A DNA stretch of 64,000 nucleotides from the IMG/VR virus record IMGVR_UViG_3300034684_000231; one strand, 5' to 3'. The translations under genes and the position numbers were made by a program. Of the stretch, positions 1-64,000 are shown in pieces (within the stretch, counting starts at the first letter, position 1; the number at the start of each line of letters is the position of its first letter). The stretch comes from an uncultured virus (IMG/VR IMGVR_UViG_3300034684_000231). Lineage: Duplodnaviria; Heunggongvirae; Uroviricota; Caudoviricetes. The notes under the pieces were generated by a model. It did not search any database and was not told the DNA's origin. It worked only from the letters and a program-made list of their open reading frames with translations.

Positions 1-70
1 TTGGATTTGTAATTCCTTCGTGTAACTATCTATATCCACCTATTGTAGTACCAAGTTTAAGTTCGGCCAT
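1..70 (-). CDS. 5' start of a tail fibre/hinge-connector-like protein (runs off the left edge)
   Basis: SD GGAGG then ATG at 70. Reads MAELKLGTTIGGYR*LHEGITNP, resembling the MAxLKxGTTIGG..xxHxG N-terminus of phage fibre proteins. Confidence 0.55.
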
Positions 71-87
71 GTATTACACCTCCTGGC

Positions 88-3000
88 TCATATCCATAGG
101 TTTATAACCTATTTACCTTTATACTCTGTATTGTACGGTGCCCCATCTTCATAAAGTATTTGTTGCCCGCGACCAAATGCCTAGTATGGAGATCTGTATG
201 ACAACGGCCAAATTTTTGAGCCCATTGCTTGAAGTTGATTTGTTAAGTCTGTGTTTGTATTAACAGCGTCGTACGATGTAAGCTACCAGTATTGCGTTCT
301 TTCTATCCCAGCAAGCTACGTTGCTAAATTAGTTCTCTATGCATTGTCAGCATATACATCGTATGTTGTGTCTGATAAAACATTAAACGAATTATCAAAA
401 ATCGTTAATCGTAAACCTCTACCCCCGGTATTGTAAATTTCAGTATCATTAATCTTAAGTATTCTATTACCACTCGTTCTGTTTTCTGGATAAGTTGAAT
501 CAAACTATGTACCCACCAAATAAATTTTGGTAAATTTACTATCCTCTTTAAACATTCTTGTGTGAACTCCTAGCGGAAAGATTCTAAATGGGCTAACATT
601 AGAATCAGAAACTTTTTCTATCTGTAAATCGTTTATATACAGTCTTGTACCATATTCGTCTGTGTCTGTATAAGTATATCCTATCTTGAATTCGCGCATA
701 CAATAGTATGTAACACCATCCGTGCCTGTTTGATACATGTAACCTTTTGGAATAGTAAATATCTATTCGTAATACTGCCAACCGTCTATGTCGTCGAATG
801 TATGTGTTATATAAGGCAAAAATAAGCCTGATAATCCTACTCCATTAGATACCCAGCCAACAGAATACTAAAAGTATATTTCAATCGTGTGTTGTGAATA
901 ACCTTTGTAATAAAAGCTTAAGCGATATGTCTATCCTTCTTCCCATATTTTGTCATCTGGAAAGATGAGCCTTAATCCACCCCAGTTCCAATTCGGACTG
1001 TTTAAAACATTAGGCTATCTTTTAACCATATAAGAATATGGCAAATGTCTAAAAGGACGCGGCACAAGCATTACTTTACAATTTGTTTGTTCATATTTAT
1101 TCCATATTCCTCCGAATTGTCCTGTAATAAACTATGACTCACCGTATCTGTCCAAGAGATTATCCCTTTCTTTTGCAATGTTAATTTTCTACCAGCCTTT
1201 GTTGTCTATGCTGAAAGTTCTTGGAATATATTTTGGTGCTTCTGAAGCATCTATAAATTTACTATACACATGCAATTCGCTAATTTTCTAGTTTTGCTAA
1301 TCTGTACCTTGATTCAAAAAACCGAGTCTCTAATAATCGAAGCCTTTGTCAAAATTGAAATCAGATGGTAAATCTTGAGAATATACCATTAAATCTTCGT
1401 GTGTAGTAAGATCGCGAATATATGCACTGATCTTCTTTGTTTTTGTACTAATAGATGCGAGAATAAATAGTTTATGCCCTATTCTGTCATTGATTCCATT
1501 AACGCTACTTTCATATGAATAATCTCTTGTGCTATCAATAACATTAAATAGTATTGTATTCTATGAAGACCAGCCATTTCCTCTGTAGATACCGAACCAG
1601 TCTTTTGTATGCCCGCTTGTCCACCAGTTTAATGTAAATATCTATGGATATGAACCATACGTATTGTCTGAAAGCGGTTCGTAAATAAATGATACCGTGA
1701 ATTCATCTTTAAAATTGTTGAATATATCAACAGGCAATTCTAGATAACTGACTCCTGCTGAACCATCTACATAGCTTAGAAGTTGATCGGTGTTATAGAT
1801 CTATACTGCCTAAATGTCGGCTTTTGTGTTTCCTACCTAGTATAAATGTCTTCCTCCTCCGGATCCATTAAATTTGCCTACCTACCATATCCATTCGCCA
1901 AGCTTCTTTCCGTGCTGTTGATAGTAAGATTCGTTTATGTAAAGTCTATTAGATGAATTTAAATCACCAAATTGAATTTCTCCGTAGTGAAGCCTGAGTA
2001 GAACTCCGTATACTATATTGCCTGATGTATTTCCTATGTTGCCACTAAACCATCCGCCCCAACCGTTCTTGTTTGTAGAATATGTAATGTTATCAAAGTA
2101 CTATGTAGCACCGCCAGAACCTCCAAATACTCTCAAGCCAACTCCGCCAGAAGAATAAGTCGCATCAGTATGCGATGCCACGAGCGTGTCGTTTATATAC
2201 TATTCATGAGATCCATTCGAATATACGACTTTTAATTTTACAGTTTGTCCCTAAGTATACGAAGTTGATGCAGATGCAAGCTGTGTCCACGAACCACTGT
2301 CTGCTGTGTTGCTTCCCTTACCCATTACAAGAGTACCGTTTCCTACTCCTACATAATATCCATATGTATCGTTTACGTCGTCAAACTATGTGGTCATATA
2401 TACAAAACCAGCATTTCCATCGCTTGGAATAGTAACATATGCTTCTATATAACCATAGCTGTTGCTTGGAATACTTTTTAATACAACCAACTAATGAGTA
2501 TTCTAAGAAGCGGTTAACTTAATCTTGTCATTTTCAATAGTTTGAGTACCACAAACTTTATATAGGTATCCAAAGTTATTATCTTTATTTAATGTTGTGT
2601 ATTTGTATGTTTGAATTCTTTGTGCCTTTGTAAGACCAGTAACAGGAATAGTACCATCATATATAATTTCAGTACTCCAATTACCAGAGCCAAACCTTTC
2701 TTCAAAATTGTTGCTAAAGCCACATACATTGCCGGTATAACCTATATCATAACTTTGCATGTTAGATGTAGAAATTTGATTAGTAACAGCGCCTTCAAAA
2801 GAAATCGAGTCATTGAATAATCTTAAATTGTCGTAATTAAACGCTGTAGAAATGCCTTGATAAATCTTTTTGCCTATTCCAACATAAAGCTATGGCTATG
2901 TGCCCCAGACATATTGTCCTGTGTTTGCCCATGTCCACTGAAAGCCAAAATAAAAATTATTGCGATATGCAGTATTTGTAATCTTTGTGCGATCTATTTT

Positions 3001-3501
3001 AAATGTATAAATATATCGCCACCAGCCATTGCCTAAGTAATATTTATATACTTGAGATTCGTACTAACTTGTATAATTGCCTTCTGTCCAAGGATATCCT
3101 CCACCCTAGTATGGATAATCAATCGGCTCTACACTTTCACTTGAATTAGAACTCTTGAAAACACCTGTTAATGTATATTCTTCTATATCCTAAATCTGTT
3201 CAAGCCCGCTTACATTATATTCATAGAAATAACCGGAAGCTGATGTCTATTTTTCTACTCTATATATAGGATTACCAAGGAATGTGCCGTCTTGTGTTAT
3301 ATTTGTCCAGTAATTACCTCCGCCACTCCAAGCGTAAAAATTTTGTTTTCCTATATCTTCAAGATAGTTATGAAGCGTTATTACCGAACCATGTAATGGT
3401 AAATAAGCAAGAAGGCGGTCATAGTCTGCCACCCCTTCTTCAGCAAATTCTTCTGGTATAAGAACAAAATCTTTAAACAATTTTATTCCAACAGCGGGCA
3501 T
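88..3501 (-). CDS. Large tail-associated beta-sandwich protein (CBM/LamG-like domains), ~1137 aa with TAG read through
   Basis: SD GGAGGG, ATG at 3501 (MPAVGIKLF). ORF fragments 3247-3522, 2503-2760 and 505-738 are all in this frame, ending TGA at 88-90. Contains HTDATYSSGGVGLRVFGG...YFDNITY and LamG-like KISELHVYS motifs. Confidence 0.7.
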
Positions 3502-3514
3502 AGGATCCCTCCTA

Positions 3515-5839
3515 TTATGCAAAGATAAAATCTATAGATTGATTAGTGCTATTATAAATAATATTGAAATTATTAAGTGTAAGACTGCCATTTATAGTCA
3601 CATCATTAGCTGTAATCATATTGTTGACTGTAATGCTTTTTGTAAATGTAATATTGCCATTAACAGTGTTGTCTATGTCACTTCTAACAAATTGTGTTGA
3701 ATCTAAATTGTCTAATTTATCAGAATTGCCTGCGCTAGAGGCATAACTAACCGAAGCGTTTGCAATATCTGTAATTGTGGATATTGTATGTGTGTGAGAA
3801 TCGTTCTAAACAGTTGTGCTGATTGTAATATCAGATGAACCATCAAAACTTGCTGAACCGCTTACGCTACCAGATAAAGCAATTGTTCTCTAAGTTTCAA
3901 GTTTACTCTATGTATATGCATTTCCATTTAAAGCACCGTTAAATATATTCTATGTTACAGCGCCATCAATTAGTGCGTTGCCGGCAACGTGTAATTTTTC
4001 AGAAGGCAAAGTAGTGCCAATGCCTACATTACCGTCGTTTCCTATTACATATAGCTAATTTTTGCCTATATTAGTTGCACCACCTCTGTATTGTATGAAT
4101 AACGTGTTTGCAGTTCCATCAGAATTGTACAAGTTGATTTCGTTATTATATTCAAATCTTGTATATTGTGAGGTTCCACCGTTCCATATTTGGACCGTTC
4201 CATTTACAACTAAATCGTTTGAGATACCAGCAGAACCATTTACATCAAGTTTGTATAATGGCATTGTTGTGCCAATGCCAATATTTCCATTGTCGTCTAT
4301 GAATAACAATGATATAGATTTGTTATGTTTTGTAATGCGAAAGTAATTAGCTGAATTATTATTAGAATCTATATCTAAAGTTATTGAACCTTGTGAGCTA
4401 ATTGTAAAATCAACATTAGCATTAGATTCAATATTTGAAGAAGAACCATTGAATGAAACTAAACCTGTAAATGATGTTCCTGATCTAAGGGCAAAATCAC
4501 TCGAATCATATCCATCTAGCTTATCTGAATTATTTGAAAATAAAACAAAAGCATTAGAAATGTCTGTAATTTCAGAAATAGTATGTGTATGACCATTAAG
4601 AGAAAACTATGTTGCCGGAAGTCCATTTAATGTCTGAGCATCAAAACGAAGCTATGTGATAAGAAAATTCCTCTATGAGTATATTGGGGTATTGTTGTAC
4701 ATACTAATAATAGTGTCGTTGCCAAGCAAAGAACCGTTGAAAGAAAGAACTGAAACAAAACCGTTTAATAATTTATCTATTGCTCCGTTGTTATATCCAT
4801 GCCCGACATATACTTTTTGGAATGTGGTGCTGTTGTAATCTAACGTAGTCTAAATTTGTGTGTCTAACACCTATGTATCGTTGATAAATAATTTGGCATT
4901 TATGTTGTTGGCATCTATTCTGCTGTATCCTAACTAGAAGAAAGTCCAACCGTCTGGATCATATGATAAAGTCTGTGCAGTGTGAACAACAGTATTTAAA
5001 TTATCACGTATGGTGACTTTCAATCCAGTGTAGTTATTTATAGTCTCTAATGTAATACTGTTCTATTCACTCGGTTTACCAATTGATATTACTACCTAAT
5101 CATTTTGCCTTTTTGTAGGTGGAACATAGAAATATCCGTAAACAGTTAATGATTCGTGGTATCCTATTGTCGAGATAATCTTCCCATCTGGTCTGGTGCT
5201 TGCAGTGAAAGATGTCCATGTGCTACCTTCTTCTAATTGTAAATACTGAAGGTATAACTGCTACTTTTTTGTTGCGTCAACTGTAAATGCGATTTCAAAT
5301 TCCACTTTCTAAGCATTGGATGGAGTAGTAAATGAAGCATAATATAATTTGCCATCTTCAAGTTTAGCTTGGAGAGCTTCAGTTATACTTAATGCTGTCC
5401 AATTTACAAGTGTTGTATCCTATGCATCCAATATTTTATACTTAATGGTTATTGAACCATATTGAGTAATATCTGCAACAAAGGATAGCGTGTATGTTGT
5501 GTTTTCCTATATATTTACTGCGTTGGTAGTAACAACCGCAGATGTGTTTGAAGTACCAGAAAGTTTGTTTTCAATGTAAATGTTAAAACCTGGTTTGAAT
5601 CCCTTTGTAATCCAATACTGCGATTTGTATATGTCTATTGAATTGTTGAAAGAAACTGAAGGCAAGAACAGATCTGGAATATTATCTCCATTGTCATCGC
5701 GGGACAAAAGAGCGAGAGAACCAAACAAGTTTGTTGTTCCTTTTTCAATTAGTTGTGAATATTTCTAACCTACAAATGGTAGTGGAGATGTGTACTGAGT
5801 ATATATTTGATCTGCATTAACTATTAAAGTTGGTATCAA
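3515..5839 (-). CDS. Tail fibre protein, ~774 aa
   Basis: Probable TTG start after GGGGTG. Fragments 5507-5728 and 4055-4309 are in frame, with TAA at 3515-3517. Fibre motifs: two GN(I/V)GIGTT repeats, NGNAYT*SKLET*RTIALSGSVSGSASFDGS, two HTHTIS.ITDI...NSDKLD repeats, and LQLEEG. Confidence 0.8.
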
Positions 5840-5890
5840 TATGATCACACCCCTTGTTGATAAGATATGCAGTTTCTATTAAATAATTAA

Positions 5891-6189: not shown

Positions 6190-7818
6190 TTATTTATTTT
6201 CTTTAGGAACTATTAATGTGAGCTATTGTGGCGGTAAAGTTCCTTTCTTTTGATACGGTTGTTGATGCTAATTGTTTCTGTGTTTAATATATGCTTGATG
6301 ATTCATTGCCACTTCTTGGTACATGTCTAATAAGATGTGTATTCCCTAATCTAACAGTTGTCTTTTTAAATCGTCTTTATCTTTTGCCGGAATATCTTTC
6401 ATCACTTCGTCAACACCTTTGAAATAGTAACTCCCTTGATTACACATGCATTTTTCAAACATATTTCCATTCATTCCTTGATAGTATTTTTTAATTGGTC
6501 TTCTATCGTTAGAATAGATAATATTGTGTCTGTTGTAATCGAATAGGCCATATTGTTTGAATAAGTCTATAATTCTTCGAGCTGCACTATATAATGTATG
6601 ATTCATTTTACAACTTTTTTCGTTTTTTGCATCTATTTTTCCTGCGTTGTCATAGTTAGAAGCATAACAGGAACCTTTGCAGTAGTATTTTAATTTGCAG
6701 TATTTACAATGTTCTAAATTGTTGACGTCCCAATCTCTTAATTTAGAAAGCAATTCTTCGTTGTGTATGCCTTCCCATACATTGCCTAACCATCCGTAGC
6801 GTTTTTCAAAATGAATTTTATATGGATCTAAACCGTGTTTATTAAATCTATGGCATACAAATATTTGTCCTTCTACGCTTACACCAAAATACGTGGAGCC
6901 GGCACCACATGGCTTTGGCAAATGCATACCTCTGGACAAAGTATGAAGTTTAGGATCATAACTTCCTGTTTTTTCAATTTCATCTAAATTGATTCCTTGT
7001 CTTTCTGCTTCTAAGATGTAATAGATCATATCATCTACAAATTTGTTTTGTATTGCAGGAAAACCGTTTTTGTAGTTAATTATCATTCTCTCATACAATG
7101 CTACTAATTGTTCTTCAAGTTCTTTGAAATGATCATTAGTCCAATTTGCCTCAAATACTGGTGAGAAGAAATATGACACAATTCCTTTTCCAAGTACATA
7201 TTCATAGCTTTTGATAATGTTTGGTATATAGTCTGGATGTAAAGACATTCTCAATTGCGGAGCATAACCATATACCTTCTTGTAAAGATCTATGTTTTTG
7301 TCGATAATGTCGAAGCTCCCTTTTCCATTTGGCAGAACTCTTTGTGCATCGTGATTTTCTTTTATGCCGTCCATAGATATAAGCCACGTGATATTGCGTT
7401 CTGCACACCAGCGAAGCCTTTCTTCTGTAAATTCTACAGCATTGGTAGTGCCGCCTATATGTCTAATTTTTTTGCCAGTTTCTTTTGATTTTTGCTCGAA
7501 GTATTCATATGTTTTTTTGATCATGTCAAAGTTATGAAATGGTTCGCCGCCCCATGGTTCAAATCCCAAACCGCCTTGCTTATTTACTTCTTCTACCGTT
7601 CCTGAGTTGCCGTCATCGAAAAGCCAATCAACAGCCTACATCATTACTTCTTCAGTAAGCTTTCTGTCCTCTCGTTTTTTGGCCTAAAAGTCAGCGAAGC
7701 AATACTTACATCTTAGACTGCACCCTTCTGTCATATCTAGACTGAGATTTAACGTTGATGCTCCTAATTCTTTAAGTTTCTTCCCCGGTTTGCCTAATAT
7801 AAATGGATATTCTAACAT
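6190..7818 (-). CDS. Radical SAM enzyme with C-terminal SPASM domain (anSME/ranthipeptide-maturase-like), ~542 aa
   Basis: SD GGAGG, ATG at 7818. The CSLRCKYC (CxxxCxxC) motif lies upstream of two TAGs, followed by WGGEP, TTN and ISMDG. SPASM motif CGAG...VCHRF...CKYCKLKYYCKGSC...C. Ends at TAA 6190-6192 after three further TAGs. Confidence 0.92.
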
Positions 7819-7842: not shown

Positions 7843-9717
7843 TTATTGTTGTATATCTGTAGTTGAATAACATTCGCAAGAATAATTAAGTGTTCCATTG
7901 CAAGTACATGAACTTGTTGTTGCAACTCCGTTTGTTGTTGCGCTAGAATAAGAAGCACAATTAGAGTAAAGACTACACCTATTAGTTACTTCTGTTACAT
8001 CCTCATTGCATGAACTTGGTGGTGTACCTGCTATATCGTAATCACAGCTTGTTGCAAACGTTGAACATGTTGTAAACTAAGAACATGTTTGTCGTATTGG
8101 ATCAAACGTGTATGTATCACACTAACTATCACACGGACAACTATAGTTAAATGAGGAACATGTATAGTTTTGAGAATAACATTGCCAGCATTCGAACGCA
8201 TACCACGATTCACATCCGCAGTTATACCCATGACAAGTGTAATCACACTAACAACTAGAAAAGTTTACACAAGATGAATTGCAAGGACAAGTATGAGAAA
8301 AACAAAAACCGTTGCATTTACATGTGACTGCATTACATTGTCCATTACACATACATAATGCATCTGTTGTTCCATCACACTCGCAGGTTTCGTGATAACA
8401 TGATGTTTCGCAGTTGCAACTATATCCATCGCATGCGTTGTAACACGAACAAGGCCCATAACCGTCACAGGACAAATTGCAGTCACAATTGTATGATTGA
8501 AGGTAGCAACTTCTATCACAAGTACACGAGGAATATACATCGCAAACTGTATAACAGTCACACGAATATCTATCACATGATCCGTCGCATTGGCATGTAT
8601 AAAAACCTGTTCCATCACACTAACAGAGATCAAAAGAACAATATGGTGTGTCTACATCACATGCACACGTACTATAAGACATACAACCAGAAACAGTGTC
8701 ACATGTATAATTGCATTTACACGACGCTTCTTTGTAGCACTAATAGTTGCATCTGCATGATACTGTGTCACAGGCAAAATCACAAACACACTATATATAA
8801 CTATCGCAAGTATGATCACAAGAACACGATTTAACCACCACACATTGATTGTTACATTCACAAACTATATATTGTGTTCCATCGCATCCGCAAAGTTGTG
8901 CAAATAGCTACGAATAACATTCACACGTAAGATAATTTTTGGAATTGCATTGGCATGATTGGCTATTACAAACATTATAACAAGAACAGTTAGAATATCC
9001 ATTGCATGTATTATTACACGAACACCCAATTTCGCTATCACAACTGCCATTGCAAGTGCATGGAGAATAATAATCACAACTGTAACAATATGCTATTGGA
9101 ATATATGATTGTATTCTGTTGTAGTATTCGTTTAACACCTCGTCGCTTATGATTACTTCTGAGTAATAATGACAAGTATAGGTAGTATTATATAATGTGT
9201 CAATTACACTTTTAATTTGATCTATTTTAGATTTCTATATTGTATCTTTTGTCAAAACTTTGGAAGGAAGCGACGGCAAATTGCCAATACCATCTTTAGT
9301 GCTTTTATAAGCACTGTATAGCTATTGCAATTTATCAATGATCTTATTGACGGAATCTTTTCTAACGACATTCTATTGAACACCTGCTTTTACAATTACT
9401 CTTTTAAGAGTCTAGCCATCTCCAGTTGAAGACCAAATCTGAACTTTATTAGTACCGTTAAGTATTTTTGGTATTCTAGCAGAAAAAGTCATTGTTTTAG
9501 TATCGTCGAATTTTAGAACACGTAGTTCTTGATCGTTGACTGCTACTCTTACTCCTCCTTCGGCGTCAACGACAGTAACATATACAACACCAGAAGAATA
9601 CTCCCGGTTTGTATTAAATGTATATACAAGAGCATTGGCAATTGTAGTATTGTTTGGAATGCCAATAGAAATTGAACCAGAATCGTATAGTGTTACTTGA
9701 TCTGTATTTAGCTACAT
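7843..9717 (-). CDS. Cysteine-rich repeat protein (about 88 Cys in CxCxxxC repeats) with ~210-aa N-terminal domain, 624 aa
   Basis: Hand-translated end to end. Starts ATG-TAG-CTA at 9717 after SD GGGGTG. Fragments 8908-9138 and 8248-8475 are in frame, ending TAA at 7843-7845. Confidence 0.85.
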
Positions 9718-14659: not shown

Positions 14660-14683
14660 TAATCTCACCTCACATTAGCATTA

Positions 14684-17365: not shown

Positions 17366-17439
17366 TAAATCACCACCCTGTATGCAGTTATGGTACACCG
17401 CGGATGATATATTAATAATGAAGGAAGTTACTATCTTCC

Positions 17440-17452
17440 TGTTAATTAACAA
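17440..17452. promoter_or_regulatory. Palindromic GTTAATTAAC in the divergent intergenic region (candidate bidirectional phage promoter)
   Basis: Variant of the TTGTTAATTCA motif found before three other transcription units. Sits between the divergent starts at 17365 (-) and 17487 (+). Confidence 0.4.
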
Positions 17453-17486
17453 CAGAATTCGAGATATTCAGAAAGGGAGTGGGATA

Positions 17487-18939: not shown

Positions 18940-18955
18940 GAATATACATCATAAC

Positions 18956-47588: not shown

Positions 47589-47589
47589 G

Positions 47590-48234: not shown

Positions 48235-48245
48235 GTTAGTCCCCC

Positions 48246-51300: not shown

Positions 51301-51323
51301 TATTTATCACTCCTTTATGAAAG

Positions 51324-51908: not shown

Positions 51909-51935
51909 TATATGTCACTCCTTTCAAATCTTTTA

Positions 51936-52514
51936 TTATTCGTTAACGTCTTTGTATTTAGTTGTTGTTGGTGCAATTGAACGCGCCATGAAACTGACTC
52001 TTTCTAGCTATGCTACGTCATTAATTTGTTTTGCGTAACTGTAATCATAGAACTGAACATCATACAAGACTATTTCAAGGTATTCTAACTTTGCTTTACC
52101 GTCAATTTCTTTTGGTTGAGGATTCTATGAAATCAATATCAATTTGGAAAATTCTATATCATCGATATTGGAATCTATTGTGTAATATGCATTTACTGGC
52201 GTTCCATATATTTTTTGTTCTGACAATACCTCGCTTTCAACAAGATTTGATTCTACTTCTGTAATGTATCTTTTGTTTTGCATACTAAATTGATTTAAAA
52301 AGGTTTCGTTAAATATAACCATATCAATGGATCCGCTTATAAATCTCTAGCCACGTGCGTTTGCTCTTGGTAACGCACTTCCGAATGTAAATATTGGTAT
52401 TTTTCCTCTAGTGGTTTCAATAATGATATTAACCGCGTTCCCTATTACTTCATGAGTTCCATCTGGCAATTCCTATATCAGCAACTAGTTAGAAGGAGAA
52501 TATGTCAACGACAT
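51936..52514 (-). CDS. Tail-tube-like paralogue 1, 192 aa
   Basis: SD GGAGGTG. Reads MSLTYSPSN*LLI...IGNAVNI...PIFTFGSALPRANARG*RFISGSID...FMARSI. Confidence 0.75.
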
Positions 52515-54064: not shown

Positions 54065-54652
54065 TTAAGAGATCATTTCTACATAGGTATCAATCTTACG
54101 TATTACATCTATAGATTTTGTGATTGTTTGCTCAGTCTGTACCTAGTACAACAGTGTTGTTTTATATAACTTTGTTCCGCCAATATCTTCTATCTCATCT
54201 TCTTTTTGCTCCCAAAAGACAGGAATCTGATATCCGTTTTTTGTAAAAACATTCGATGTTATGTTTAGCATACTCATATAACTGATAAAATCTTCTGTTG
54301 CCCTGGACACTAATGAGTAATCCGTTGAATATAAATCGAACTCAATCATGTTATCTAAGAAATATTTAAACTGTTGTTCCTATGCTATACCACCTGCACC
54401 TATACTTAAATTAACAGGAATGGGACGCATGAAAGTGCGTTCTTGAAATGGCATTTTCTGACTGCCCTACTATCGCCTCTGTAATTTGTAAATTAACAGC
54501 ACGTTGTTTGCCTATGGATTTGCCTCTTTTAATAAAGCAGGAGGTTTTACTGTGACTTCATAACCTAATTGCTTGGCCTCAACATACTAAGTAAATGCTT
54601 TGGATATAAGCCCCACGACGTCAAGATAAGATTGCAATTCAGTCTTTAACAT
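54065..54652 (-). CDS. Tail completion/terminator-like protein, 195 aa
   Basis: SD GGAGG, ATG at 54652, fragment 54143-54349 in frame (DNMIEFDLYSTD), directly upstream of the sheath. Confidence 0.6.
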
Positions 54653-55022
54653 ATTTTCTTACCTCCTATGTGTTGCAGTATAAAAGGTATCCAAGGAGTT
54701 TGCCTTCTACTATAGTTTCTACAATAGTGCCTATTTCATATTCGTCTGTAAATTCAAGAGAACCATCATCTTTTTTGCGGACAAGCTACACGTGTCCTTC
54801 TTTTATAGGCTCAATTCCGTATTTTGACTAGACAAATATAAGAAGTTTTAAGTTTTCGGTTACGAATGGCTTTTCTATATCCTTTGGTTGAGCAACAGAT
54901 TGATAGTTACTTGTTAAGACAGCAGGCTATTTTAATACATACTATTTCCCATCTTTCTATTCAACAAGAATAGGACGCTATGCCATATCAAGCATGTAAT
55001 CTATGAGAACTTCGTAATCCAT
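54639..55022 (-). CDS. Head-closure/neck-like protein, 127 aa
   Basis: TAATG overlap start, hand-translated with 7 TAG, TGA at 54639-54641. Function inferred from position only. Confidence 0.5.
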
Positions 55023-56170
55023 TAGATTTCACCACCGTATCCGAAAATTTCTTCCCATGCTTTAATCTACTGCAATGCTTTTGTGTTTGCTGGATACATT
55101 GCTCCTTCGGATTTGCTCTATGATATTGGAGAAAGTCCACCAAGATATTCCCTTATCAATTCGTCTTTTTGCACTTTTAAGAAGTCAATTTGGGATTGAT
55201 TTACTCTACCAAATGTTACGCTTGCTACGCCTGTATTTACTTGGTTTCCTGAAGAAAGCATTTTGCGATTCAAAAGCAACGTGAGAAGTTCATAATACTA
55301 GTATTTTTCAAGGAACAAACGAGTTTTTGAATCAATTATAGTTTTGCCTATAATTGTTTCTCCTATAATTTTTTCATATACAACCATCTATGATAGAGAG
55401 GCATAATAGATGTCTGCATCTGTGATTTCGTTATAATACTTGCCTAACTGCGAGCCGACATGTCTTACGTTAATATAAGGCTTTAATGTAGTAAGAGCAA
55501 TGAATTCAAACGTGTCTTTTCGCCCATTTTCAAATTCAATTTCACTTGTAGTGATATAAACAATCTAATTATTTACATATGTAGGCATTATGTAGTGAAG
55601 TTCATTTTGTACAAAAAACGCGCTTTCGCTTGTGTCTGTTACGTCGTGTGTGTATGTGGAAGCTTCTCCGTCTATTCTGTCTATTGTGACGTAAATTTTA
55701 AATGGCTTAGCTATTGCGCTTGAAAATGTCTATACAAATTCTGCTGTGTTTAAAAGCTTAGTATAAGTAACAGTCACAGGACTGTCATCTAAAACTACAA
55801 TTGGCTGTGGTGTTGTATCGCTTTGTGTAGGTGTATCGTTTGTTCCGTTGGATACTTCGCCTGTCACTGTAAACTCTAATCCGAAAGTGGATGCTTGATT
55901 GCCCGTTGTGCTTAAAAGATATTTGTTATTGAGCAAATCATAACCAGAAAGATACAAATAATAAGTTCCCTAAGATGGATTCTTAGGTGTAATAGTCAAG
56001 TCATAACCGCTTATTGAGTAATCATATTCAACAGATGCACCGTTCTTTTCTAGAATGAGCATCTATGGTGTAAACGTATTTGCGTCTATTTTCTCGTCGA
56101 ACGTAAGAACTATACTTTCATTGATGCCTATATTCTAACCGTTAGCCGGATATGTTGACACGACTTTCAA
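55022..56170 (-). CDS. Neck/adaptor-region protein with N-terminal Big_5-type Ig-like domain, 382 aa
   Basis: SD AAGGAG, TTG at 56170. MKVVSTYPANG*NIGINESIVLTFDEKIDANT. Hand-translated to TAA at 55022-55024. Confidence 0.7.
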
Positions 56171-56280: not shown

Positions 56281-57486
56281 TTATACAGTGATTGTGCTTA
56301 CTGCGAGAGGATCAAATGTTTCGACAACTTTGACATCTTTTATGACTCCGATTGCAGATCCGTCGAATTTTGGAGCCATACCGTATCTTTCTCTAATCTT
56401 GAAGCGTTTAATGTCTCTTGCAGGATCATTGAACTCTTCTGTTGTTGGCCTTTCTGCTGTGATTAAGTATCCGAGATTTTCGCTGTCTACAACTATAATG
56501 TCTGTTAATTTGTTGTTTTTGTCGTATCTTGCTGCTGGTGAAAGTATTAATCTGAGTGGTTTTCCAATTATACCAGTTGGAAGTTCAAAGCTTACAATAT
56601 TTCTTCCGTTGAGATCTGCTGTTTTACCCATTACTTCGTAAATTGATGGCTGTCCGCCTTTTGTTGTTGGCCAATTGAATAGTGATCCTTTTTCTCCCAT
56701 TGATCTGAAGAAGAAGCTTCTTAATGTTCCGTTCTTTGCAAAGATTGGATATGCAAGTGGGTGCATGATTATGGTGTCAACATTGAATCCTTTGTCCATG
56801 AATTGAACTGCAACATCTATAATGTCATCTAATGAAAGTCCTTGGTTTGGATTTCCGCTGATGTCAACACCAGAACCGCCGTTCTTGAGTGTCTTTGCGC
56901 TTTCGTAGAACATTTTGACAGCTTTTCTTTCTTTCCATCTTGCCAATGCTTTTAATGCTTCTTTTATTGCTGCATTGAAGATGTCAAATCTTGAATATTT
57001 GATTGCTTCCTCTGTCAATGATACAGCTATACCTGATTTTCCAATTGTGACTGTTGCAACAGCTCCTCCAGCGACTTTCAATTTTATTTCTGGGTATTCG
57101 CCAGCTTCTCCTACATCTAGGCTTTGTCCAAATGCACCAACGAATTGTGGAACGTGAATTGTCAATGATGGTCCTGGATCTACTTCGATTTCTTCAAGTA
57201 ATGATGTGATAACAAGTTGGTTTTCAAATACATCTGTTGCCATCTTTGTAATAACTTTTGGGAAAAAGTAACCGAATTCTGGTGATGTGATTAAGTCTTC
57301 CATAGAATATTTTTTGGAAGCTATTTTGTTGATTTTTCCGTGATTTTCTATAAGTCTTTTGTAGAGTTCAACTTTCTAATCTTCCTCTGCAACCTTCTTT
57401 AACTATTTAACTACATCAGAGTCTCCAACTATGATTTCTTGTATCTTCTCTTCTACTATTTCGTTGATGTAATCTTTGAATTCCAT
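56281..57486 (-). CDS. Major capsid protein (HK97 fold), 401 aa
   Basis: SD GGAGGG, ATG at 57486 (MEFKDYINEI), TAG at codons 28 and 37, in frame with ORF 56281-57303. Motifs VGEAGEYPE, IGKSGIAVSLTEEAI, IIMHP and KIRERYG. Confidence 0.9.
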
Positions 57487-57525
57487 GTTATATTCCCTCC
57501 TCATCTATTTAATCAATGATTTTTA

Positions 57526-58344
57526 TCAGAACCAGAGTTGGATTAACAAGCCTTTCTTGGTTGTAAGATCAATACCATCTGTTACACCATCGGTTGGTTT
57601 TCCAGGTAATCCACTTGCAAAGTCGTCTGGTAAGTATTCAACTGTTTCAAGTGCTCCTGTGAAATCTGGTTCTTTTACAAGATCAATAACTTTGACAAGT
57701 CTTCCTACACCGTATTTTAAGTTCTCTAATGAAGCGGCTACTGTTGATGCATCTGTGTTGTCAACTGTAAATGGTACAGGGAATCCTTTGTCATCAAGTA
57801 TCAAAATATCTCCTGCTTCATAATTGACTGCATTGTGATCGTTATCAACTGCTAAGAGAATCATTCTGTCAGCTAAAATAGTTATAGGATCTTGCACTTG
57901 ATACCAAGGATCTTTGCCCATATCCCATGCGTATACATCAAACATTGCAACACCAAGTGGTTTCCCTATCTTTATGTCTGCTGTTGCTGTTGTTCCAAGT
58001 TTCTTTGTTGAATCTCCTGCTGCTGAAACTACTGGGTCATTAGCGTTGTTTGTAAATCTGTCAATGTGTTTTACTCCCGCATCAATGTCGTATTGTCCAT
58101 ATGTAAGAGTTTTTTCTCCTACGAATGCTGGTACTACATAACCATATTTGTCAAGAGTTACAAAGTCGCCCTTTTTGATAACAATTCCTGCGTTTACGTT
58201 CTTGTCAAATTCTTTAATTGGCAAGTATGGTGCTGGTCTTAATTCAAGTCCACCGCCGATTCTAATACCATCAGAATATTCTCTCATCTTTTCATGCTTT
58301 GCTTCTGGATAAAGTGGTATGCTGTTGTTTAAAATCCTTGCCAT
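57526..58344 (-). CDS. Capsid decoration/cement-like structural protein, 272 aa
   Basis: Intact ORF with no TAG, SD GGAGG, TGA stop. Lies between the scaffold and the MCP. Confidence 0.65.
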   Translation of the reverse strand: MARILNNSIPLYPEAKHEKMREYSDGIRIGGGLELRPAPYLPIKEFDKNVNAGIVIKKGDFVTLDKYGYVVPAFVGEKTLTYGQYDIDAGVKHIDRFTNNANDPVVSAAGDSTKKLGTTATADIKIGKPLGVAMFDVYAWDMGKDPWYQVQDPITILADRMILLAVDNDHNAVNYEAGDILILDDKGFPVPFTVDNTDASTVAASLENLKYGVGRLVKVIDLVKEPDFTGALETVEYLPDDFASGLPGKPTDGVTDGIDLTTKKGLLIQLWF

Positions 58345-58379: not shown

Positions 58380-59696
58380 TTATTTTTTAAAACCGAGAAC
58401 TTGATCAATTAAATCTAATGTGCTGTCAACTAAGTTTGTAGTTATAGGATTCATTTCTTTTTGTAAATTAACTTCATCTTTGTGTTCGAATTCAACATTT
58501 TCGTCATTTGCTTCTTCTTCGATTTTTTCTTCCTTTTCTTCGTCTTCTTTTACCTCTTCTTTTAGTTCTTCTTCAACTGCTGGTTCTTCTGTTTTGTCTT
58601 CTCCTTCTTCTTTGCATTCTTCGCATTCTGCATCCTCTTTTTCAATTAACAATGAATCAACTAATGCTTTATACTCTTTTTCAAGCGTCTTTAATGTGTC
58701 AATTGAATAGTCTTTGATTCCTTCTTTAATTTTTTCTACTGCTTCTGCATCTTCAATACCAAGAATAATTGCTTTTAATCCTGCTACTCTGTCAATTAAG
58801 TCTTCTTTTAAAACGCCTAAAAGTTTATCGTGTGCTTCTTTTAACGCATCGTATTCTGCAACTTTCTTGTTATATGCATCTTCAAGTTCTTTGTACTTGC
58901 TTTCAAGTTCAGTATATGCGTCTTGTAATTTCTTGAGTTCTTCCATATCAGAGCCCTCCTTATCTGAATTAACATTAACATCACTATCGGTCATTGTTGA
59001 ATTAACATCTTTATCTTGTCCGAATGGTTCGTTTTTGATTTCTTTGAGAGCTTCGTCTAAAGAAGTGACTTCTAACCTTGCTATTCCTGCATATGAATCT
59101 GCTGGTGTGTTTACAAAACTAATTTCTCTGTATTGAATTCCCAGTGGAACGTCGTATGCAATTACTCCGTCATATTCATGTCCTGTTTCATGAGGACAGA
59201 AGTCAATTTCCTCGTCTGGTTCATCGAAAATCCCAGGTTTTGGTTTGCCACATATGTTACATACAAGCGCGTCTGCAAAAAAGCCAACACTGACTGTTGT
59301 GTAATTACCGGCCATGACTTTCTTTATAGCTTCTTCATCTGTCACGTATGCTTTGAGAAGAATGCCTCCAGAGGCTTCAGCGGGCAGTTGAATCTTTTTG
59401 CCTGTTAAGGCTTTCACTTTTGCGTCCCATTCCTGTCTGTCAATGTAGTAGGCTTCAACTACTCTACCAATTGCATCAGTGTAATTGTCATGATGTCTAA
59501 GCACAGGTTTTTGGAAAGGATGTGTCCAAGTGGCAACAGCTTTTTTTATTTCTTCTTTCTTGTAAATTCTCATGTTAATAGGCATATCGCTATGTGTGGC
59601 AACAATCCAAAGCTTTAACTAAGATGGTGTTTCCTAATCTTTAAATGTTTTGTCTACTTGAAGCTGAGTGTAAACAAAATATTCCTTTTGCTGCAT
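58380..59696 (-). CDS. Prohead protease fused to an acidic coiled-coil scaffold, 438 aa
   Basis: SD AGGAGG, ATG at 59696, TAG at codons 21 and 26. Motifs PVLRHHD...AIGRV, YTTVSVGF, CNICG...CPH and REISFVNTPAD. E/K-rich C-terminus. Confidence 0.85.
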
Positions 59697-59739: not shown

Positions 59740-61194
59740 TTAACTATTTTTAGTGTGTTGATTTTGAGGATTTACTTTATTTTCTGTTTCTGCTGAATTC
59801 TCCGGTTCGGTATTTATTAAACCTGGCTTTGCTTCCGCTTGCCATTCTACCTGTGGCTTTTTAACGTGGTAAATGTACATGTCTTCTTCATCCACTTCTG
59901 TGTGCATACCTAATTGTTCTCTCATTTCAGAGAATGTGATCGCACTATGTTCATACAAGTAAACAGCTTGGTTTTGTAGTTTAACTAATGTGTCTACATC
60001 AGGATCGTTAAATATAAGTTTCGGCATTTTATCGCCAAGAGTCTTAGGATTGTATCCCATATCAATAACTATATGTTCCAACACTTCATGTTGGAATTGC
60101 TATGCAAACAATTTTTGAAATTCTTTTGCTTTAAGGAGAGCAAAGTTAACGGAGGTTTCAGCAGTAGCACGGTTGGCCTAACCTGCTTCGCCCATCATAA
60201 CGGAAGAAAGACCAAGAGCACCGTAAACTCTGTGCCTAATCTTGTCGTAGAAAACTAGAATATCTTGGAGAACATTGTTAGCGCGCGTTTCTATATCATG
60301 GTTGTGAGGAGCAACTATTGTGTCATATGGCTCCATGCCTTCTAACATTTTCTTTGTTTGAATCAATTCATCTTTGGAACGTGCCGGCATTTTATCGTTT
60401 CCAACTTTATAAATAGAATACATTACTTTACCTTTCTCAATAATGTGTTCAATTATACGTTCAATCTTTCTGAGAATTAACAAATCATCTATTGCTTCAA
60501 AATAGAATGGTCTTCCAAAACCTGTAAGTATATCTTCGTCGTATTTAAAGTGCGCAACTTCATATCTATAAAACTTGCGTGAAGTGGTTGTTCCGAAAAT
60601 ATCGCCGATAAAAAAATTGAGTTCGGGATCATGCGCAAAAAAGCTGTATTGTCTTTGTAATAGCGATAAATCTTGTTTGTAAGCAACAGTTTCTCCAAAT
60701 GTATTCCTTTGAATAGCCATTATTATTGGATGTGTTACAAAGATACCAGAAATTGGATCTAAGTTCTTGCCGTTGTATACGTATGATTTTCCAGAAACAG
60801 CATTTTTGCTTCGAGAGAAAACTAACATTGCATTACCAAATGCAATAAAATGTTTCATAGCATTGCGTACAATTTCGTACATAGTAAGATTGGAGTTGAA
60901 TTCTATTTCACTTAGCCTTTTCTTTAACTTCTTATTAATTTCTGTATCTGAAGACATAATGTAAAAGCCGTTGTTAATACAAAGCTCTGTATACATCTAA
61001 ACGGTTTGCTTCAGAATACTATCAGCTCGATAAATTCTGTAAGCATCAATAAGACCAGTATTTGCTTCATATTGTCCTTCGGGTGTTTTTGTTCCCTACT
61101 ATACCTGTTTCTTTTCTTTTATTAGATTTGATTTGCTCGCTGCATCCTACATAATTGGCTCTTCTTTCTTCTTAAACCAGTCAAAGAAGCCCAT
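59740..61194 (-). CDS. Portal protein, 484 aa
   Basis: SD GGAGG, MGFFDWFKKK. Fragments 60178-60996 and 59740-60084 are in frame. Motifs FGNAMLV, VAHFKY...GFGRP, ANRATAE and AITFSEMREQLG. Confidence 0.85.
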
Positions 61195-61196
61195 AT

Positions 61197-63338
61197 TTAT
61201 TCCTCCTTGCTAAATAGTTTTTCTAATATATCAAACATTGCGCTTAATGGCTCACGTAAGAATTCCGGAAGACTGTTAAGCTATTCTTTTTCATCTTTAT
61301 TCAAAGTCATTGAAAGACTAGACGTATTTATTATACATTTTTTGTATTTTTCTATTACGTTTGTATTTACTATGTATTTGTAGAATACATCAAGCAATTT
61401 CTTAATTCCATCTATGTATCCTTTTAAGTTTAAACGCGGTTTTTGTAAATCCAATTCAAACATAAGTTCTTCAAACATCTTATCTATTTTATCCATTTGA
61501 GAAAACATAGACATAAACAATGGTTTGATGAGTTCTTTAACTATCTATGCAACAATGTATGTCCAGATGGTAGGATCTAAAAACATTGCACCTTGCATTG
61601 TCATTGTATATAATGTACCGCAAGTTTGTTTTAGCTTTTTCTGTTTAATAACTGGAGTTTCTACTGCGTATTTAAGTAAGTAATATACATAATAATCGGC
61701 TGTTGATGGTTCTAAAGATGGGTTCTCTCCGTATGTATTCTTGATATAATTTGCCAATGCTTGTCTATATTTTTCACCTAAATAAGCAATTTGCTGCATT
61801 AACAATCCCATGAATATAACTGTTGAATCGTGTAGTAATAAAGAAGCTAAGTGTTTGTTTTTGCCTTGTAGAATTTTTGGTCCGTATTTTGTTATTGCTT
61901 TAGTCATTGCCGAGAGATCAGAATTTAGTGCGCCCTAAAACAATTCTTTTATTAAAAGGAATGATTCACCAACTCCGGTCGAATCCATGAGCAATTCGTT
62001 TGCTATTTTTGTAATTAACTTATCTACATCAGGCATTTTTCCAGTTTCCACCATTTCTTGCTTAGCAGATATTAGAGTTTCCTATACAGCAGCAGCGGAT
62101 TCTGCAATCTTTTTAAATGGTCTTGGTAATTTTGGTTTGTTCTTTAATAGCGCAGATACAAAGCTTTTGTATGGCTACACAAAAGGAGAAGTAGTATTTT
62201 CAATATTCAGTTCTTTGCTTGCAAATCTTTCAAATAGCGAACTTAATATTTGAGATTCATCGATGAATTTGTTGACATCAAACAACGACATTAATGCCTC
62301 TTTAGAATATGTATCTCCGTAAAAAGCTGTGAATATATACATGAATTTGTGCAAATCTTTTATGTATTCTTTTAAGTATTCATTAGCTTCTAATCCTTCG
62401 TTTATATTGTCTGCGATAGTATCAACTCCGTGGAGTATTAAACCTAAAATTGATACCATAATATAGGCAAATAACATTTGAACTAATCCTTCAAGCACAG
62501 CACTCATTGGATCTGGGTTCTTTGTAATATTCCTAAAGAAATCCCCGGTTGCGTTCCATAAAACGTACATATTAGCATATGTGGCTTCTAAAACATCTAA
62601 TGTCGTGACTGTATCATCAAGAAATTTATAAATTGACTCTTTGTTGTCCTTTAACATTTTAATCAGAGGAAGATTGTTATATTGACTTGTCCACGTATTG
62701 ATTGTAGTTTCTACATAATCTTCAAATCGTTTATAACTTTCTTCGTTGGAATAATTATTAAAGATTTGAGAATAGTAATTCTTGTATGCAGTAATGTAAA
62801 AGCCCCAAAAAGAAATATATTTAATTAAACAACAAGACGGATTTGAGAATATTACATCTAACAACGCATCAGCGGTTTTGTCTAAATTGTTAGCTAACCT
62901 TTTCAGGCCTTCTTGTACCGCATTTTGTGCATCTGTTTTTAATTTGTTTACTACTGAATTTTCATTATCTGCAGATGTTGTTGATTTTTGTTGTGCTTCC
63001 GGACTAATAATTTCATATTTAGATATAGTATCTGTAAGTTCATTCACTAATACAACTTTGTCTTCGGTGTAATGAACTGCATATGCAAGATCTATAACAG
63101 AGCTTAAAGTGTTTTTGTGCTCTGACTCTAAAGACAACATCTAGTTATTTGCGCTGTTGATAATGTATCCTACAGCATTTAATACCTCTGGATATGCATA
63201 CTACACGTGAGGATCCATTATATCTGAAAATGCACTATATTTTGCAAACATGGATTGTCCACTGTTAATATAGAAAACTTTCTATTTGCCTTGCTTTTTA
63301 GCGATTTCTAAACATTGTTTAATGTCTCTTGAGGCCAT
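61197..63338 (-). CDS. Hypothetical helical protein, 713 aa
   Basis: SD GGCGGTGA, ATG at 63338. Fragments 62175-63140, 61545-61907 and 61281-61520 join via TAG. TAA at 61197-61199 abuts the portal SD. Confidence 0.7.
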
Positions 63339-63350
63339 TTAATCACCGCC

Positions 63351-64000
63351 TTATTTAAGAATGTTGCCAAGTGTTCGTTTGATGTCTGTTTCAGAATAAT
63401 ATTTTCTGCCATATCTGTTATATCCAAGCTATACAACAGCAAGCATCTTACGTTGTGTAATTGACAATTTGTTACTTGATACAGTCTTTTTGCCACTCAT
63501 TACTTGATCAAGAAAATAAGGAGTTGAATCTGTTCCTAGTGTTAGGCCCTTTGGAATCCTAAAGAATGAACACATTAATTCATATTCCCTTACAGCAAAG
63601 AACCATACTATATGTTCCCATACTGTAATGAGTGGTATCCACTTGAATGGATACCAACTAAAGTTAAATCCCCAAAACGAAAAACTAAATCCTATATTCC
63701 TAATTTTGCCTAATATCCAGTTCATAATTTGTTCAAACGGCAATATAGTCCATGAACCAAAGATCCTAATGATATCAAGTTTTGCTTCAAAGTTCATTAA
63801 TAATTTCCAAAATAATATTTGGAACCAATCAACATTGAATACACAATCTAGAGATGGAGCTTCAACCGGCTTTACATTTGCAAGTTTTACGCCGGTTGAC
63901 TTTTCCTATACGCGAATCTATTTTAATCCTTGTTTAACGCTCTTAGTATTTCCAGCATGTCTAGTTATATCTTTTTTAAATTGTCTAAATGTACCGTTAT
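63351..64000 (-). CDS. 3' part of a hypothetical protein with an aromatic/hydrophobic segment
   Basis: Frame open (TAG only) from the right edge through ORF 63429-63797 to TAA at 63351-63353. Confidence 0.65.

Follow-up and report, generated by a model that had tools for sequence, protein, structure and literature searches.

The stretch of DNA studied here, which is 64,000 nucleotides long (1..64000; hereafter the window) and comes from an uncultured tailed virus (IMG/VR record IMGVR_UViG_3300034684_000231), holds a virion morphogenesis module that appears fragmented under genetic code 11, which raises the question of whether TAG is a sense codon in this virus and, if so, for which amino acid. 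With code 11, stop-to-stop open reading frames (ORFs) of at least 100 aa covered a fraction of 0.378 of the window, and coverage rose to 0.979 when TAG was read as sense; the control readings with TGA or TAA as sense gave 0.492 and 0.785, respectively. For ORFs of at least 300 aa, the coverage was 0.093 under code 11, 0.801 with TAG as sense, 0.093 with TGA as sense and 0.096 with TAA as sense. An earlier examination of the letters alone (the sequence-only reading) had proposed that TAG is sense throughout the module while TAA and TGA still stop, and had named this comparison of codes as the check; the gain was large and came with TAG only (from 0.38 to 0.98), and all 40 complete ORFs ended in TAA or TGA. 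In total, 473 in-frame TAGs were counted in 41 ORFs (21,080 codons, 2.2%), at least one of them in 39 of the 41 ORFs, and they were evenly distributed along the genes (KS p = 0.35). Both strands were recoded, as had also been proposed, with 37 TAGs in the 7 ORFs of a plus-strand cassette (17.4-22.6 kb). TAG is thus an ordinary, frequent sense codon in the window, and TAA and TGA terminate.

With TAG as sense, the portal, capsid, sheath and baseplate genes were each a single ORF of a length matching its homologues (all features below lie on the minus strand unless stated otherwise). At the upper end of the window, a 713-aa ORF and a 5'-open ORF that leaves the window (61197..64000) contain 8 and 3 TAGs, and in relatives the gene for the terminase large subunit comes next after the matching region. 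The portal protein (59740..61194; 484 aa, 6 TAGs; phrog_9232, E 2.4e-23), which served as the bait for finding relatives, is followed by a 438-aa protein in the scaffold/protease position between portal and head genes (58380..59696; 2 TAGs, no family match), by a 272-aa head-module protein (57526..58344; 0 TAG versus 22 GCN codons) that adjoins the capsid gene in relatives too and is nearly TAG-free there as well, and by the major capsid protein (56281..57516; 3 TAG versus 28 GCN; PF25209, phrog_3922). Three ORFs of 195, 127 and 382 aa (54065..56170; 6, 7 and 9 TAGs), the last with a Big_5 Ig-like domain (PF13205), lie between the capsid gene and that of the tail sheath (52575..54041; 488 aa, 1 TAG versus 47 GCN; phrog_16991, phrog_23). 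Next come three tail-tube-like proteins, paralogous by alignment (50593..52514; 235, 194 and 192 aa with 3, 1 and 5 TAGs). The label of 'major head protein' given to the tube genes by phrog_9206 received no support from the fold, since a predicted model of one of these proteins (mean pLDDT 64) matched tail-tube-type chains only, at TM scores of 0.3-0.5. The claim that essential genes carry in-frame TAGs therefore held for portal, protease, capsid, sheath and baseplate, and was left qualified for the tubes, where the PHROG label differs and the fold matches have low TM scores.

Six small ORFs (47334..50569; 3, 4, 1, 6, 4 and 6 TAGs) lie between the tube genes and those of three giant proteins, namely a 2118-aa member of a large family (40820..47176; 74 TAGs; 904 representatives at E up to 1e-3), a 2194-aa protein with no family match (34229..40813; 51 TAGs), and a 2449-aa protein (26839..34188; 66 TAGs) with a homologue in the standard-code relative G002 and a C-terminal part that resembles phrog_20474 (labelled endolysin). 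At position 42634, a population variant (run X6) changes TAG to CAG, which would be synonymous if TAG were glutamine. The baseplate region (22636..26842) encodes a 655-aa protein with 13 TAGs, a baseplate wedge/J-like protein (24617-25807; 9 TAGs; phrog_6) and three small ORFs with 1, 3 and 0 TAGs, and the plus-strand cassette (17382..22612) includes a gene for a ClpP-like protease (17982-18653, plus strand; 3 TAGs; PF00574, phrog_1827). The remainder of the window contains two large proteins that match no known family (9731..17452; 1645 aa with 43 TAGs and 922 aa with 27 TAGs), a 624-aa protein with a tail-protein N-terminus (phrog_23593) and, in its translation, an extremely Cys-rich repeat region (7843..9717; 12 TAGs), a radical SAM/SPASM peptide-maturase-like enzyme (6190..7818; 5 TAGs; PF04055 and the NCBIfam PapB/SCIFF/SPASM models), a 777-aa tail-fibre protein (3515..5848; 18 TAGs; families phrog_972/7389/21722) and a 1167-aa virion protein of unknown role (88..3591; 34 TAGs; phrog_38688, unknown function). 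In the radical SAM ORF, the CxxxCxxC motif (residues 33-40) lies upstream of TAGs, as had been noticed beforehand, and in fact precedes all five (codons 45, 61, 491, 517 and 532). A Shine-Dalgarno sequence had been described ahead of every gene; this applied to 27 of 40 ORFs, in which an SD-like motif stands ahead of the earliest in-frame start codon, and not to the other 13, the count being one that took the first in-frame start of each ORF and kept that start in the 13 as well.

The fragmented appearance of the region under code 11 could also come from a decaying prophage, from faulty sequencing or from genuine stops that are occasionally read through. These explanations, to which we give practically no weight, were ruled out by several observations. 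The frames were interrupted by TAG only, and no gene in the 64 kb required a frameshift or an in-frame TAA or TGA, so that the test for pseudogenisation or sequencing error set out in the sequence-only reading was passed. In addition, 129 TAG positions fell within full-length alignments to standard-code homologues, and homology therefore runs on at both sides of them. When the window was compared with recoded relatives (45-77% identity), TAG was kept in 181 of 444 aligned codon pairs. Finally, assemblies from four other studies were mostly at least 99% identical across 34229-54041 and differed there by only three indels, all of them intergenic. The recoding is real; phages with TAG as a sense codon are already known, and the new element is the probable alanine meaning.

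The sequence-only reading held that TAG is sense whichever amino acid is inserted, which was upheld, and it did not decide which one this is; four alignment tests now indicate alanine. In the first, standard-code relatives (G001-G004) were aligned to the window proteins, and the partners at the 129 TAG positions were Ala in 31.7%, Lys in 7.8%, Val in 7.0%, Ser in 6.5% and Gln in 1.4%. For calibration, the window's own GCN codons paired with Ala in 30% and its own Gln codons with Gln in 15% of cases. Alanine had the best log-likelihood over the 129 positions, with Gln at -45.5, Thr at -47.8, Ser at -54.6 and Leu at -78.6 relative to it, and alanine won 1000 of 1000 bootstraps; a control recovered each amino acid, with training positions that were also the tested positions. 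By genome, the partner was Ala at 28/75 positions in G001, 33/108 in G002, 2/3 in G003 and 0/10 in G004. At 18 of 54 positions G001 and G002 had the same residue, which was Ala in 12 and Gln in none. In the second test, 40 TAG-containing columns from the 2118-aa protein (74 TAGs in all) were examined in the best 150 of the 904 representatives, which came from a search of 1.8 billion representatives; Ala made up 19.5% and Gln 2.7% of residues, and Ala was the majority residue in 13 of the 40 columns. The third test was made within the recoded clade, using the 60 columns in which all non-TAG codons specified one amino acid: this was Ala in 33 columns, whereas Ser, Lys and Pro each accounted for 5 and Gln for 2. 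In the fourth, the recoded relatives' own TAGs paired most often with Ala in 18 of 20 loci.

Glutamine is the meaning that NCBI table 15 and the published recoded phages (crAss-like, Lak and others) would give to TAG, and the phage literature that we searched assumes or reports it. Database translations of the relatives also show Q at TAG, by convention only, and one TAG-to-CAG variant occurred in an independent assembly. Nonetheless, we regard this reading as very improbable. At 1.4% of partners versus 31.7% for Ala, the window departs from what code 15 specifies, and the share is far below the 15% at true Gln codons; Gln was the majority in 0 of the 40 columns of the second test, and the few columns with Gln as the only partner (2 of 60) stand against 33 for Ala. 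The codon shares in the window were 5.4% for GCN, 2.2% for TAG and 3.75% for Gln codons, compared with 6.7% for GCN and about 3% for Gln in standard-code relatives, and a glutamine reading would bring the window to about 6% Gln, twice the content of its relatives. GpC dinucleotides were not avoided in the window (odds ratio 1.27).

Serine or another small residue, or an ambiguous mixture such as Ala plus Ser, was also weighed and is judged improbable. In a first, small set of 31 positions Ser equalled Ala (0.20 each) and Ala led by just 2.6 log units; Ser was moreover the runner-up in most recoded loci (0.09-0.18), and seryl-tRNA synthetase, like the alanyl enzyme, ignores the anticodon. Against this, Ser accounted for 6.5% of partners at the 129 positions versus 29% at true Ser codons (log-likelihood -54.6), its share at TAG equals its share at true Ala codons (8%), and it was the single partner in 5 of 60 columns versus 33 for Ala. 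Overall, the alignments indicate that TAG is probably read as alanine and that TAG and GCN codons replace each other among clade members. We put the probability at roughly 0.8 that the window holds the structural module of a large contractile-tailed phage and that amber has been reassigned to alanine throughout its clade.

In the portal tree, the 17 recoded rows were grouped together by a branch supported at 100/100, and the standard-code relatives terminate genes with TAG (40/116 in G001 and 7/55 in G002), so the reassignment arose once, within a family whose other members keep TAG as a stop. The recoded relatives were read as structural modules only, up to about 21 kb each, and all genes seen in them were TAG-rich, terminase included. 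The clade was sampled from subsurface, oil, shale-gas, wastewater and sludge sources. Bulk metagenome contigs supplied 19 of the 20 recoded relatives and a viral contig collection just 1, suggesting that such phages may be under-counted. Among cultured phages, the portal matched those of the large Firmicutes myophages Bacillus phage 0305phi8-36, Edson, vB_BceM_WH1, vB_BauM_KLEB27-3 and Moorella phage MTATph1 (tblastn; 22-27% identity over 84-99% of the length, E 2e-29 to 5e-19). The records of these distant relatives are 177-234 kb long and have ordinary genes annotated at the matched places, and the order of terminase, portal, capsid, sheath and tube is similar to that of 0305phi8-36-like myophages, the sequence comparison being one of portals only. 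Judged by its portal sequence, the phage has Bacillus phage 0305phi8-36 and Moorella phage MTATph1 as remote relatives.

No tRNA, including the expected tRNA-Ala with anticodon CUA, was found in the 64-kb window or in the 20 recoded loci, which are structural modules, and there were no Rfam matches in the window or in four long recoded loci. Similarly, a domain search detected no release-factor domain among 40 window proteins. Because no suppressor tRNA was seen for the clade, the mechanism is one that we infer. The phage would supply a tRNA with the anticodon CUA and alanine identity (the G3:U70 pair of the acceptor stem), and the host alanyl-tRNA synthetase would charge it, since this enzyme does not read the anticodon. 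In laboratory amber-suppressor tRNA-Ala, the swap to a CUA anticodon leaves alanine charging intact because identity lies in G3:U70; the mechanism proposed here is the same, although such a tRNA was not seen in the phage clade. An unrelated, partly TAG-recoded IMG/VR contig encodes a tRNA(CUA) with G3:U70, A73 and CCA. The phage tRNA would then compete with host release factor 1, and full translation of the virion genes would occur only once the phage decoding apparatus was present. The abundant virion proteins contained 15 TAG versus 171 GCN codons, compared with 458 versus 958 in the remainder (Fisher p = 9e-14), and C was the next nucleotide after TAG in 22% of cases versus 13% after GCN (p = 9e-6); both features hint at competition with termination. 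Competition with release factor 1 would explain the near-absence of TAG from the most abundant virion proteins as well as the enrichment of C.

The lack of a phage suppressor tRNA in the window and the recoded loci, together with the TAG-rich state of every clade gene seen (terminase included), would also fit a host that itself reads TAG as alanine, with the phage mirroring its code. This is unlikely, in our view: the missing tRNA carries little weight, since the genomes were seen only in part, we know of no bacterium that reads TAG as alanine, TAG is strongly avoided in the abundant virion proteins, and sister phages from similar samples stop at TAG. For the whole clade (subsurface, oil-field and wastewater), we consider it likely that amber means alanine by way of a phage tRNA-Ala(CUA) and an anticodon-blind host alanyl-tRNA synthetase. 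The clade would thereby offer a natural test case of a virus that lives with a code not shared by its host and whose most abundant virion proteins avoid the reassigned codon.

The window resembles the 'genetic code 15' phages (crAss-like, Lak, Agate and Garnet, among others; Borges et al., 10.1101/2021.08.26.457843; Peters et al., PMC9523058; Cook et al., PMC11210395) in having in-frame TAGs in virion genes, TAA and TGA as stops, a low G+C content, genes that are fragmented by code-11 gene calling, and both recoded and standard-code members within one family. Suppressor tRNAs with the anticodon CUA were reported in only 40% of TAG-recoded genomes (Borges et al., 10.1101/2021.08.26.457843). The differences lie in the amino acid (alanine here, glutamine there), in the habitat (guts there, the sample types listed above here) and in TAG density, which is 2.2% of codons in the window and reaches 4-8% in its relatives, with up to about 8% in single genes. 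One paper on phage recoding lists TAG-to-Gln and TGA-to-Trp as the only reassignments observed, and in the literature searched no stop-to-alanine code was reported for any virus and TAG in phages was given only as Gln. If the alanine reading is true, phage recoding has options beyond Gln and Trp, and its route is set by the synthetases that disregard the anticodon, not by glutamine as such. Annotation tools apply table 15 automatically; such translations would be wrong at every TAG, about 470 in the window, an error that would affect 2-8% of positions across phages of this kind.

A further parallel is found in an organelle rather than a virus, in that UAG is sense in chlorophycean mitochondria, where it means Leu in Scenedesmaceae and has been claimed to mean Ala in Hydrodictyaceae. 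In both systems, a stop codon would have been captured by a tRNA with an anticodon-blind synthetase, and the amino acid was assigned from alignments. The alignment-based Ala assignment in Hydrodictyaceae came into doubt with the later discovery of a Leu-type tRNA(CUA) (PMC4159012), a precedent for failure of this kind of assignment. Unlike in the Hydrodictyaceae, Leu is excluded here by the alignments themselves (4% of partners, log-likelihood -78.6).

When the window (G+C 34.6%) was read from stop to stop under the standard code (code 11), open reading frames (ORFs) of at least 100 aa covered a fraction of 0.378 (longest 446 aa) and those of at least 300 aa covered 0.093. Reading TAG as a sense codon raised these fractions to 0.979 (longest stop-to-stop frame 2461 codons) and 0.801, while reading TGA as sense gave 0.492 and 0.093 and reading TAA as sense gave 0.785 and 0.096. 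The TAG read-through listing yielded a compact operon layout, mostly on the minus strand apart from a single cassette on the plus strand (17.4-22.6 kb). The set of 41 window ORFs contained 473 in-frame TAGs in 21,080 codons (452 in 20,239 in a cruder greedy ORF set), 39 of the 41 carried at least one TAG, and all 40 complete ORFs terminated in TAA or TGA. The gain in coding density and the choice of terminators bear out the sequence-only reading, which held that TAG is a sense codon throughout the morphogenesis module and that TAA and TGA remain stops, leaving the amino acid open; that finding is correct, and the recoding of the window belongs to a known kind of system. Its claim that the CxxxCxxC motif of the radical SAM enzyme lies upstream of two TAGs was also right (motif at residues 33-40, TAGs at codons 45 and 61). 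Every gene was said to start behind a Shine-Dalgarno (SD) motif; an SD-like motif stood ahead of the earliest possible start for 27 of the 40 ORFs, so "every" was too strong, at least for naive starts. Since TAG positions were uniform along the window genes (KS p = 0.35), nothing points to a gating role of TAGs close to the starts of genes.

Decay or sequencing error, as an alternative source of the interrupted frames, was rejected, the interruptions being TAG alone. In alignments with standard-code homologues 129 window TAGs lay inside the aligned region, so homology runs on across them, and in comparisons with relatives whose portals are 42-77% identical, TAG was found again at the aligned codon in 181 of 444 pairs. 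Contigs from four further studies, on shale gas, crude oil, wastewater and an oil production facility, served as independent assemblies and were compared over 34229-54041, where 5 of 7, 8 of 9, 41 of 46 and 27 of 30 pieces were at least 99% identical to the window; two wastewater runs with small shares of the DNA were left out. Only three indels were present among these assemblies (47256, 47276 and 52543), all within two intergenic gaps (47177-47333 and 52515-52574). Population variants occurred at 163 places in the compared runs; the split among the 40 listed, 15 synonymous versus 25 non-synonymous, discriminates no reading of TAG from another.

The gene identities proposed from the sequence hold by PHROG and Pfam matches for the portal (phrog_9232), major capsid protein (PF25209), sheath (phrog_16991), baseplate wedge (phrog_6) and ClpP-like protease (PF00574), and matches were also obtained for the radical SAM enzyme (PF04055) and a tail fibre (phrog_972). 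PHROGs gives the label 'major head protein' to the three small paralogues that follow the sheath; the predicted model of one paralogue (mean pLDDT 64) matched only tail-tube-type chains, from phages, tailocins and injection systems, with TM 0.3-0.5, and a sequence search of a tube candidate against solved structures gave no match. Three successive giant genes (2449, 2194 and 2118 aa) occupy 20 kb (26839-47176, minus strand), flanked on one side by the baseplate genes and on the other by the small ORFs ahead of the tube genes. In the 2118-aa protein, the C-terminal half is a member of a very large family (904 representatives, E up to 1e-3) with lengths of 1400-2900 aa, and the window copy has no Pfam match. 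The radical SAM/SPASM enzyme is encoded directly downstream of the gene for a 624-aa protein (6190-9717, minus strand) that combines a tail-protein N-terminus with about 400 residues of dense CxC/CxxxC repeats. The enzyme is closest to the ranthipeptide, SCIFF and Cys-rich-peptide maturases, scoring 193 bits with the PapB model, below the cut-off of 340, and above the cut-off of the SPASM domain. This arrangement suggests that the 624-aa virion protein may be cross-linked by a phage-encoded thioether-forming enzyme. In one recoded relative, a 223-aa ORF (L010:3575-4243, minus strand) translated with TAG as alanine consists of a long AAQQ-type repeat run followed by a hydrophobic tail.

Cultured phages gave distant matches only (portal 22-27% identical, 6 records), namely Moorella phage MTATph1, Bacillus phages Edson, vB_BceM_WH1 and vB_BauM_KLEB27-3, and 0305phi8-36. 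Species genomes were scanned twice, using the portal and capsid alignments, and yielded no relative. Searching with a portal alignment (A1) gave 41 loci, 29 of them on metagenome contigs and 12 on viral contigs. Judged by ORF coverage, 20 are TAG-recoded (0.00-0.52 under code 11, 0.64-1.00 with TAG as sense) and the other 21 use the standard code; portal identity to the window separates the two groups, at 42% or more for recoded and 39% or less for standard loci. In a portal tree of 33 rows, from which nine rows were left out (7 short and 2 duplicates), a branch supported at 100/100 set the 17 recoded rows apart from the rest, and a single change suffices to place the code label on the tree. 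TAG terminates 40 of 116, 7 of 55, 9 of 27 and 5 of 16 genes in four standard-code relatives (G001 to G004, respectively). Together, the single supported branch and the TAG-terminated genes of these relatives indicate that the reassignment arose once, inside a family that otherwise uses TAG as a stop. The terminase large subunit gene (PF03237), found upstream of the portal in relatives, is just as TAG-rich, and the TAG share reaches 4-8% in single genes. A locus from the first peptide scan (L001) was rejected as a relative, sharing an N-terminal motif only and using the standard code.

The 20 recoded relatives came from bulk metagenome contigs in 19 cases and from a viral contig collection in one (L031, 4.7 kb), the single recoded contig in viral-contig scans that used the portal and the capsid alignments; of the 21 standard-code relatives, 11 were from the viral collection. 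Recoded phages may be under-sampled in virus catalogues. Near-identical DNA was present in runs labelled as subsurface, soil, shale gas, crude oil, oil production facility, wastewater and sediment metagenomes, with no RNA data among the listed runs, and six studies other than the possible source study contain at least 46% of the sampled window words. The contig names of several relatives include 'activated sludge'. As to the host, the only hints are the strength of the SD motifs and the presence of Firmicutes phages among the distantly related ones.

Since glutamine at TAG sites in database translations of the relatives reflects the table-15 convention only, codons were paired directly with their aligned partners. 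All window ORFs, with X at TAG, were compared with the ORFs of the standard-code relatives G001 (99.9 kb), G002 (65 kb), G003 and G004. At 129 TAG positions the partner was Ala in 31.7%, Lys in 7.8%, Val in 7.0%, Ser in 6.5% and Gln in 1.4%, close to the profile of the window's own GCN (alanine) codons at 366 positions (Ala 30%, Val 8%, Ser 8%), whereas the window's Gln codons (208 positions) had a Gln partner in 15%. Scored by each amino acid's own partner profile, Ala had the best log-likelihood (Gln -45.5, Thr -47.8 and Ser -54.6 relative to it) and was best in 1000 of 1000 bootstraps of this set; the control regained all 20 amino acids 100 of 100 times, and is lenient because it was trained on the same positions. 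By genome, Ala was the partner at 28 of 75 positions in G001, 33 of 108 in G002, 2 of 3 in G003 and 0 of 10 in G004, and where G001 and G002 share a residue (18 of 54 TAG positions) it was Ala 12 times, Val and Ser twice each, and Glu and Phe once each.

In a library test, residues 1001-2118 of the 2118-aa protein were compared with 1.84 billion representatives, and the best 150 of the 904 matches were used. Among these, 40 of 45 TAG columns had at least five partners, with Ala at 19.5% (25% for the protein's own GCN codons) and Gln at 2.7%; Ala led Thr by 5.1 log units, and the majority residue was Ala in 13 columns, Gly in 7, Pro in 4, Tyr in 3, Leu in 3 and Gln in none. A within-clade test used the window and 8 representative recoded loci, giving 306 columns with at least one TAG. 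The non-TAG codons all encoded one amino acid in 60 of these, namely Ala in 33, Ser, Lys and Pro in 5 each, Asp in 3, Phe and Gln in 2 each and five others in 1 each, and control codons likewise paired with their own amino acid. As a change from TAG to GCN requires at least two base changes, this pairing reflects selection for alanine rather than mutational proximity. When each recoded locus was analysed by its own TAGs, Ala ranked first among the partners in 18 of 20, all except L018 (n = 12, Ser 0.23 versus Ala 0.21) and L027 (n = 2), and the Gln share was at most 0.05 in 19 of 20.

The alignments show TAG to be a frequent sense codon, equivalent to GCN. In the window, GCN makes up 5.36% of codons, TAG 2.24% and Gln codons 3.75%, so that TAG as alanine gives 7.6% Ala and TAG as glutamine 6.0% Gln; the standard relatives have about 6.7% GCN and 3% Gln, in ORF sets that include some spurious frames. 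Against alanine stand a first small set of 31 positions, in which Ser tied with Ala, the result for G004, and one population variant from TAG to CAG. With three concordant alignment tests, we conclude that a monophyletic phage clade probably reads TAG as alanine, through a decoding tRNA that is inferred.

The window contains no tRNA genes. ARAGORN returned nothing relevant as a suppressor tRNA in the window and 26 loci, with none in the 20 recoded loci, which are structural modules only, and Rfam gave no match in the window and 4 long recoded loci. Since alanyl-tRNA synthetase identifies its tRNA by the G3:U70 pair rather than by the anticodon, one change to the anticodon of a tRNA-Ala gene would suffice for TAG to become alanine; TAG would then be decoded by a CUA tRNA of alanine identity. 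Viral contigs were scanned for the motif of a tRNA(CUA) whose 3' end is of Ala type; the 80 loci covered, of 113 matching stretches, contained 6 CUA tRNAs, of which only those of L077 and L104 were of Ala type, with identical sequence (G1-C72, G2-C71, G3·U70, A73, CCA). They lie inside a tRNA cluster (L077:5969-6044; L182:7925-8000, which equals L104:5969-6044 on contig G006), and the contigs are viral, of 76 kb and 103 kb (G006). Neither locus matched the window by tblastn, and they are unrelated to it. G006 is partly TAG-recoded (181 in-frame TAGs, mostly in the first 35 kb); its homologues found are close relatives only, all translated by convention, and so assign no amino acid to its TAG. 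These two loci show that tRNA(CUA) genes with alanine identity marks exist in viruses. A tRNA called Ala by its anticodon CGC in the standard-code relative G001 (L048:17817-17892) was rejected as an ancestor with alanine identity, having G1·U72, G3-C70 and G73 and lacking the usual alanine identity pair. Drift towards A+T may lie behind the reassignment; G+C is 34-44% in recoded and 34-53% in standard loci. Avoidance of the GpC step was rejected as a reason, the GpC odds ratio of the window being 1.27.

Abundant virion proteins (sheath, capsid, 272-aa head protein, 438-aa protein and the three tube paralogues) contain 15 TAG versus 171 GCN codons, compared with 458 versus 958 in all other ORFs (Fisher p = 9e-14), and the same set is nearly TAG-free in relatives. 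The base after in-frame TAGs of the window is C in 22% (13% after GCN) and G in 22% (30% after GCN; chi-square p = 9e-6). The scarcity of TAG in abundant proteins and the enrichment of C after TAG suggest that its decoding is in competition with a host that still terminates translation at this codon.

Stop-codon recoding in phages is known, and what is added here is a clade reading TAG as alanine. In the passages of Borges et al. (10.1101/2021.08.26.457843) on phages coded differently from their hosts, only TAG-to-Gln and TGA-to-Trp changes are observed, and TAG suppressor tRNAs are given for 40% of TAG-recoded genomes; TAG is treated as Gln in the relevant text of Cook et al. (PMC11210395) and of a 2026 jumbo-phage survey (PMC13037316). 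A full-text phrase search returned no phage paper with UAG or TAG read as alanine, and supplementary tables could hold exceptions. UAG as alanine does appear in print for algal mitochondria, where, according to the section of PMC4159012 that deals with it, the claim came from alignments, as for the window clade, and was later doubted, a Leu-type tRNA having been seen, which counts against alanine here. In the phage papers covered TAG is taken as glutamine, whereas in the window clade the alignments point to alanine.
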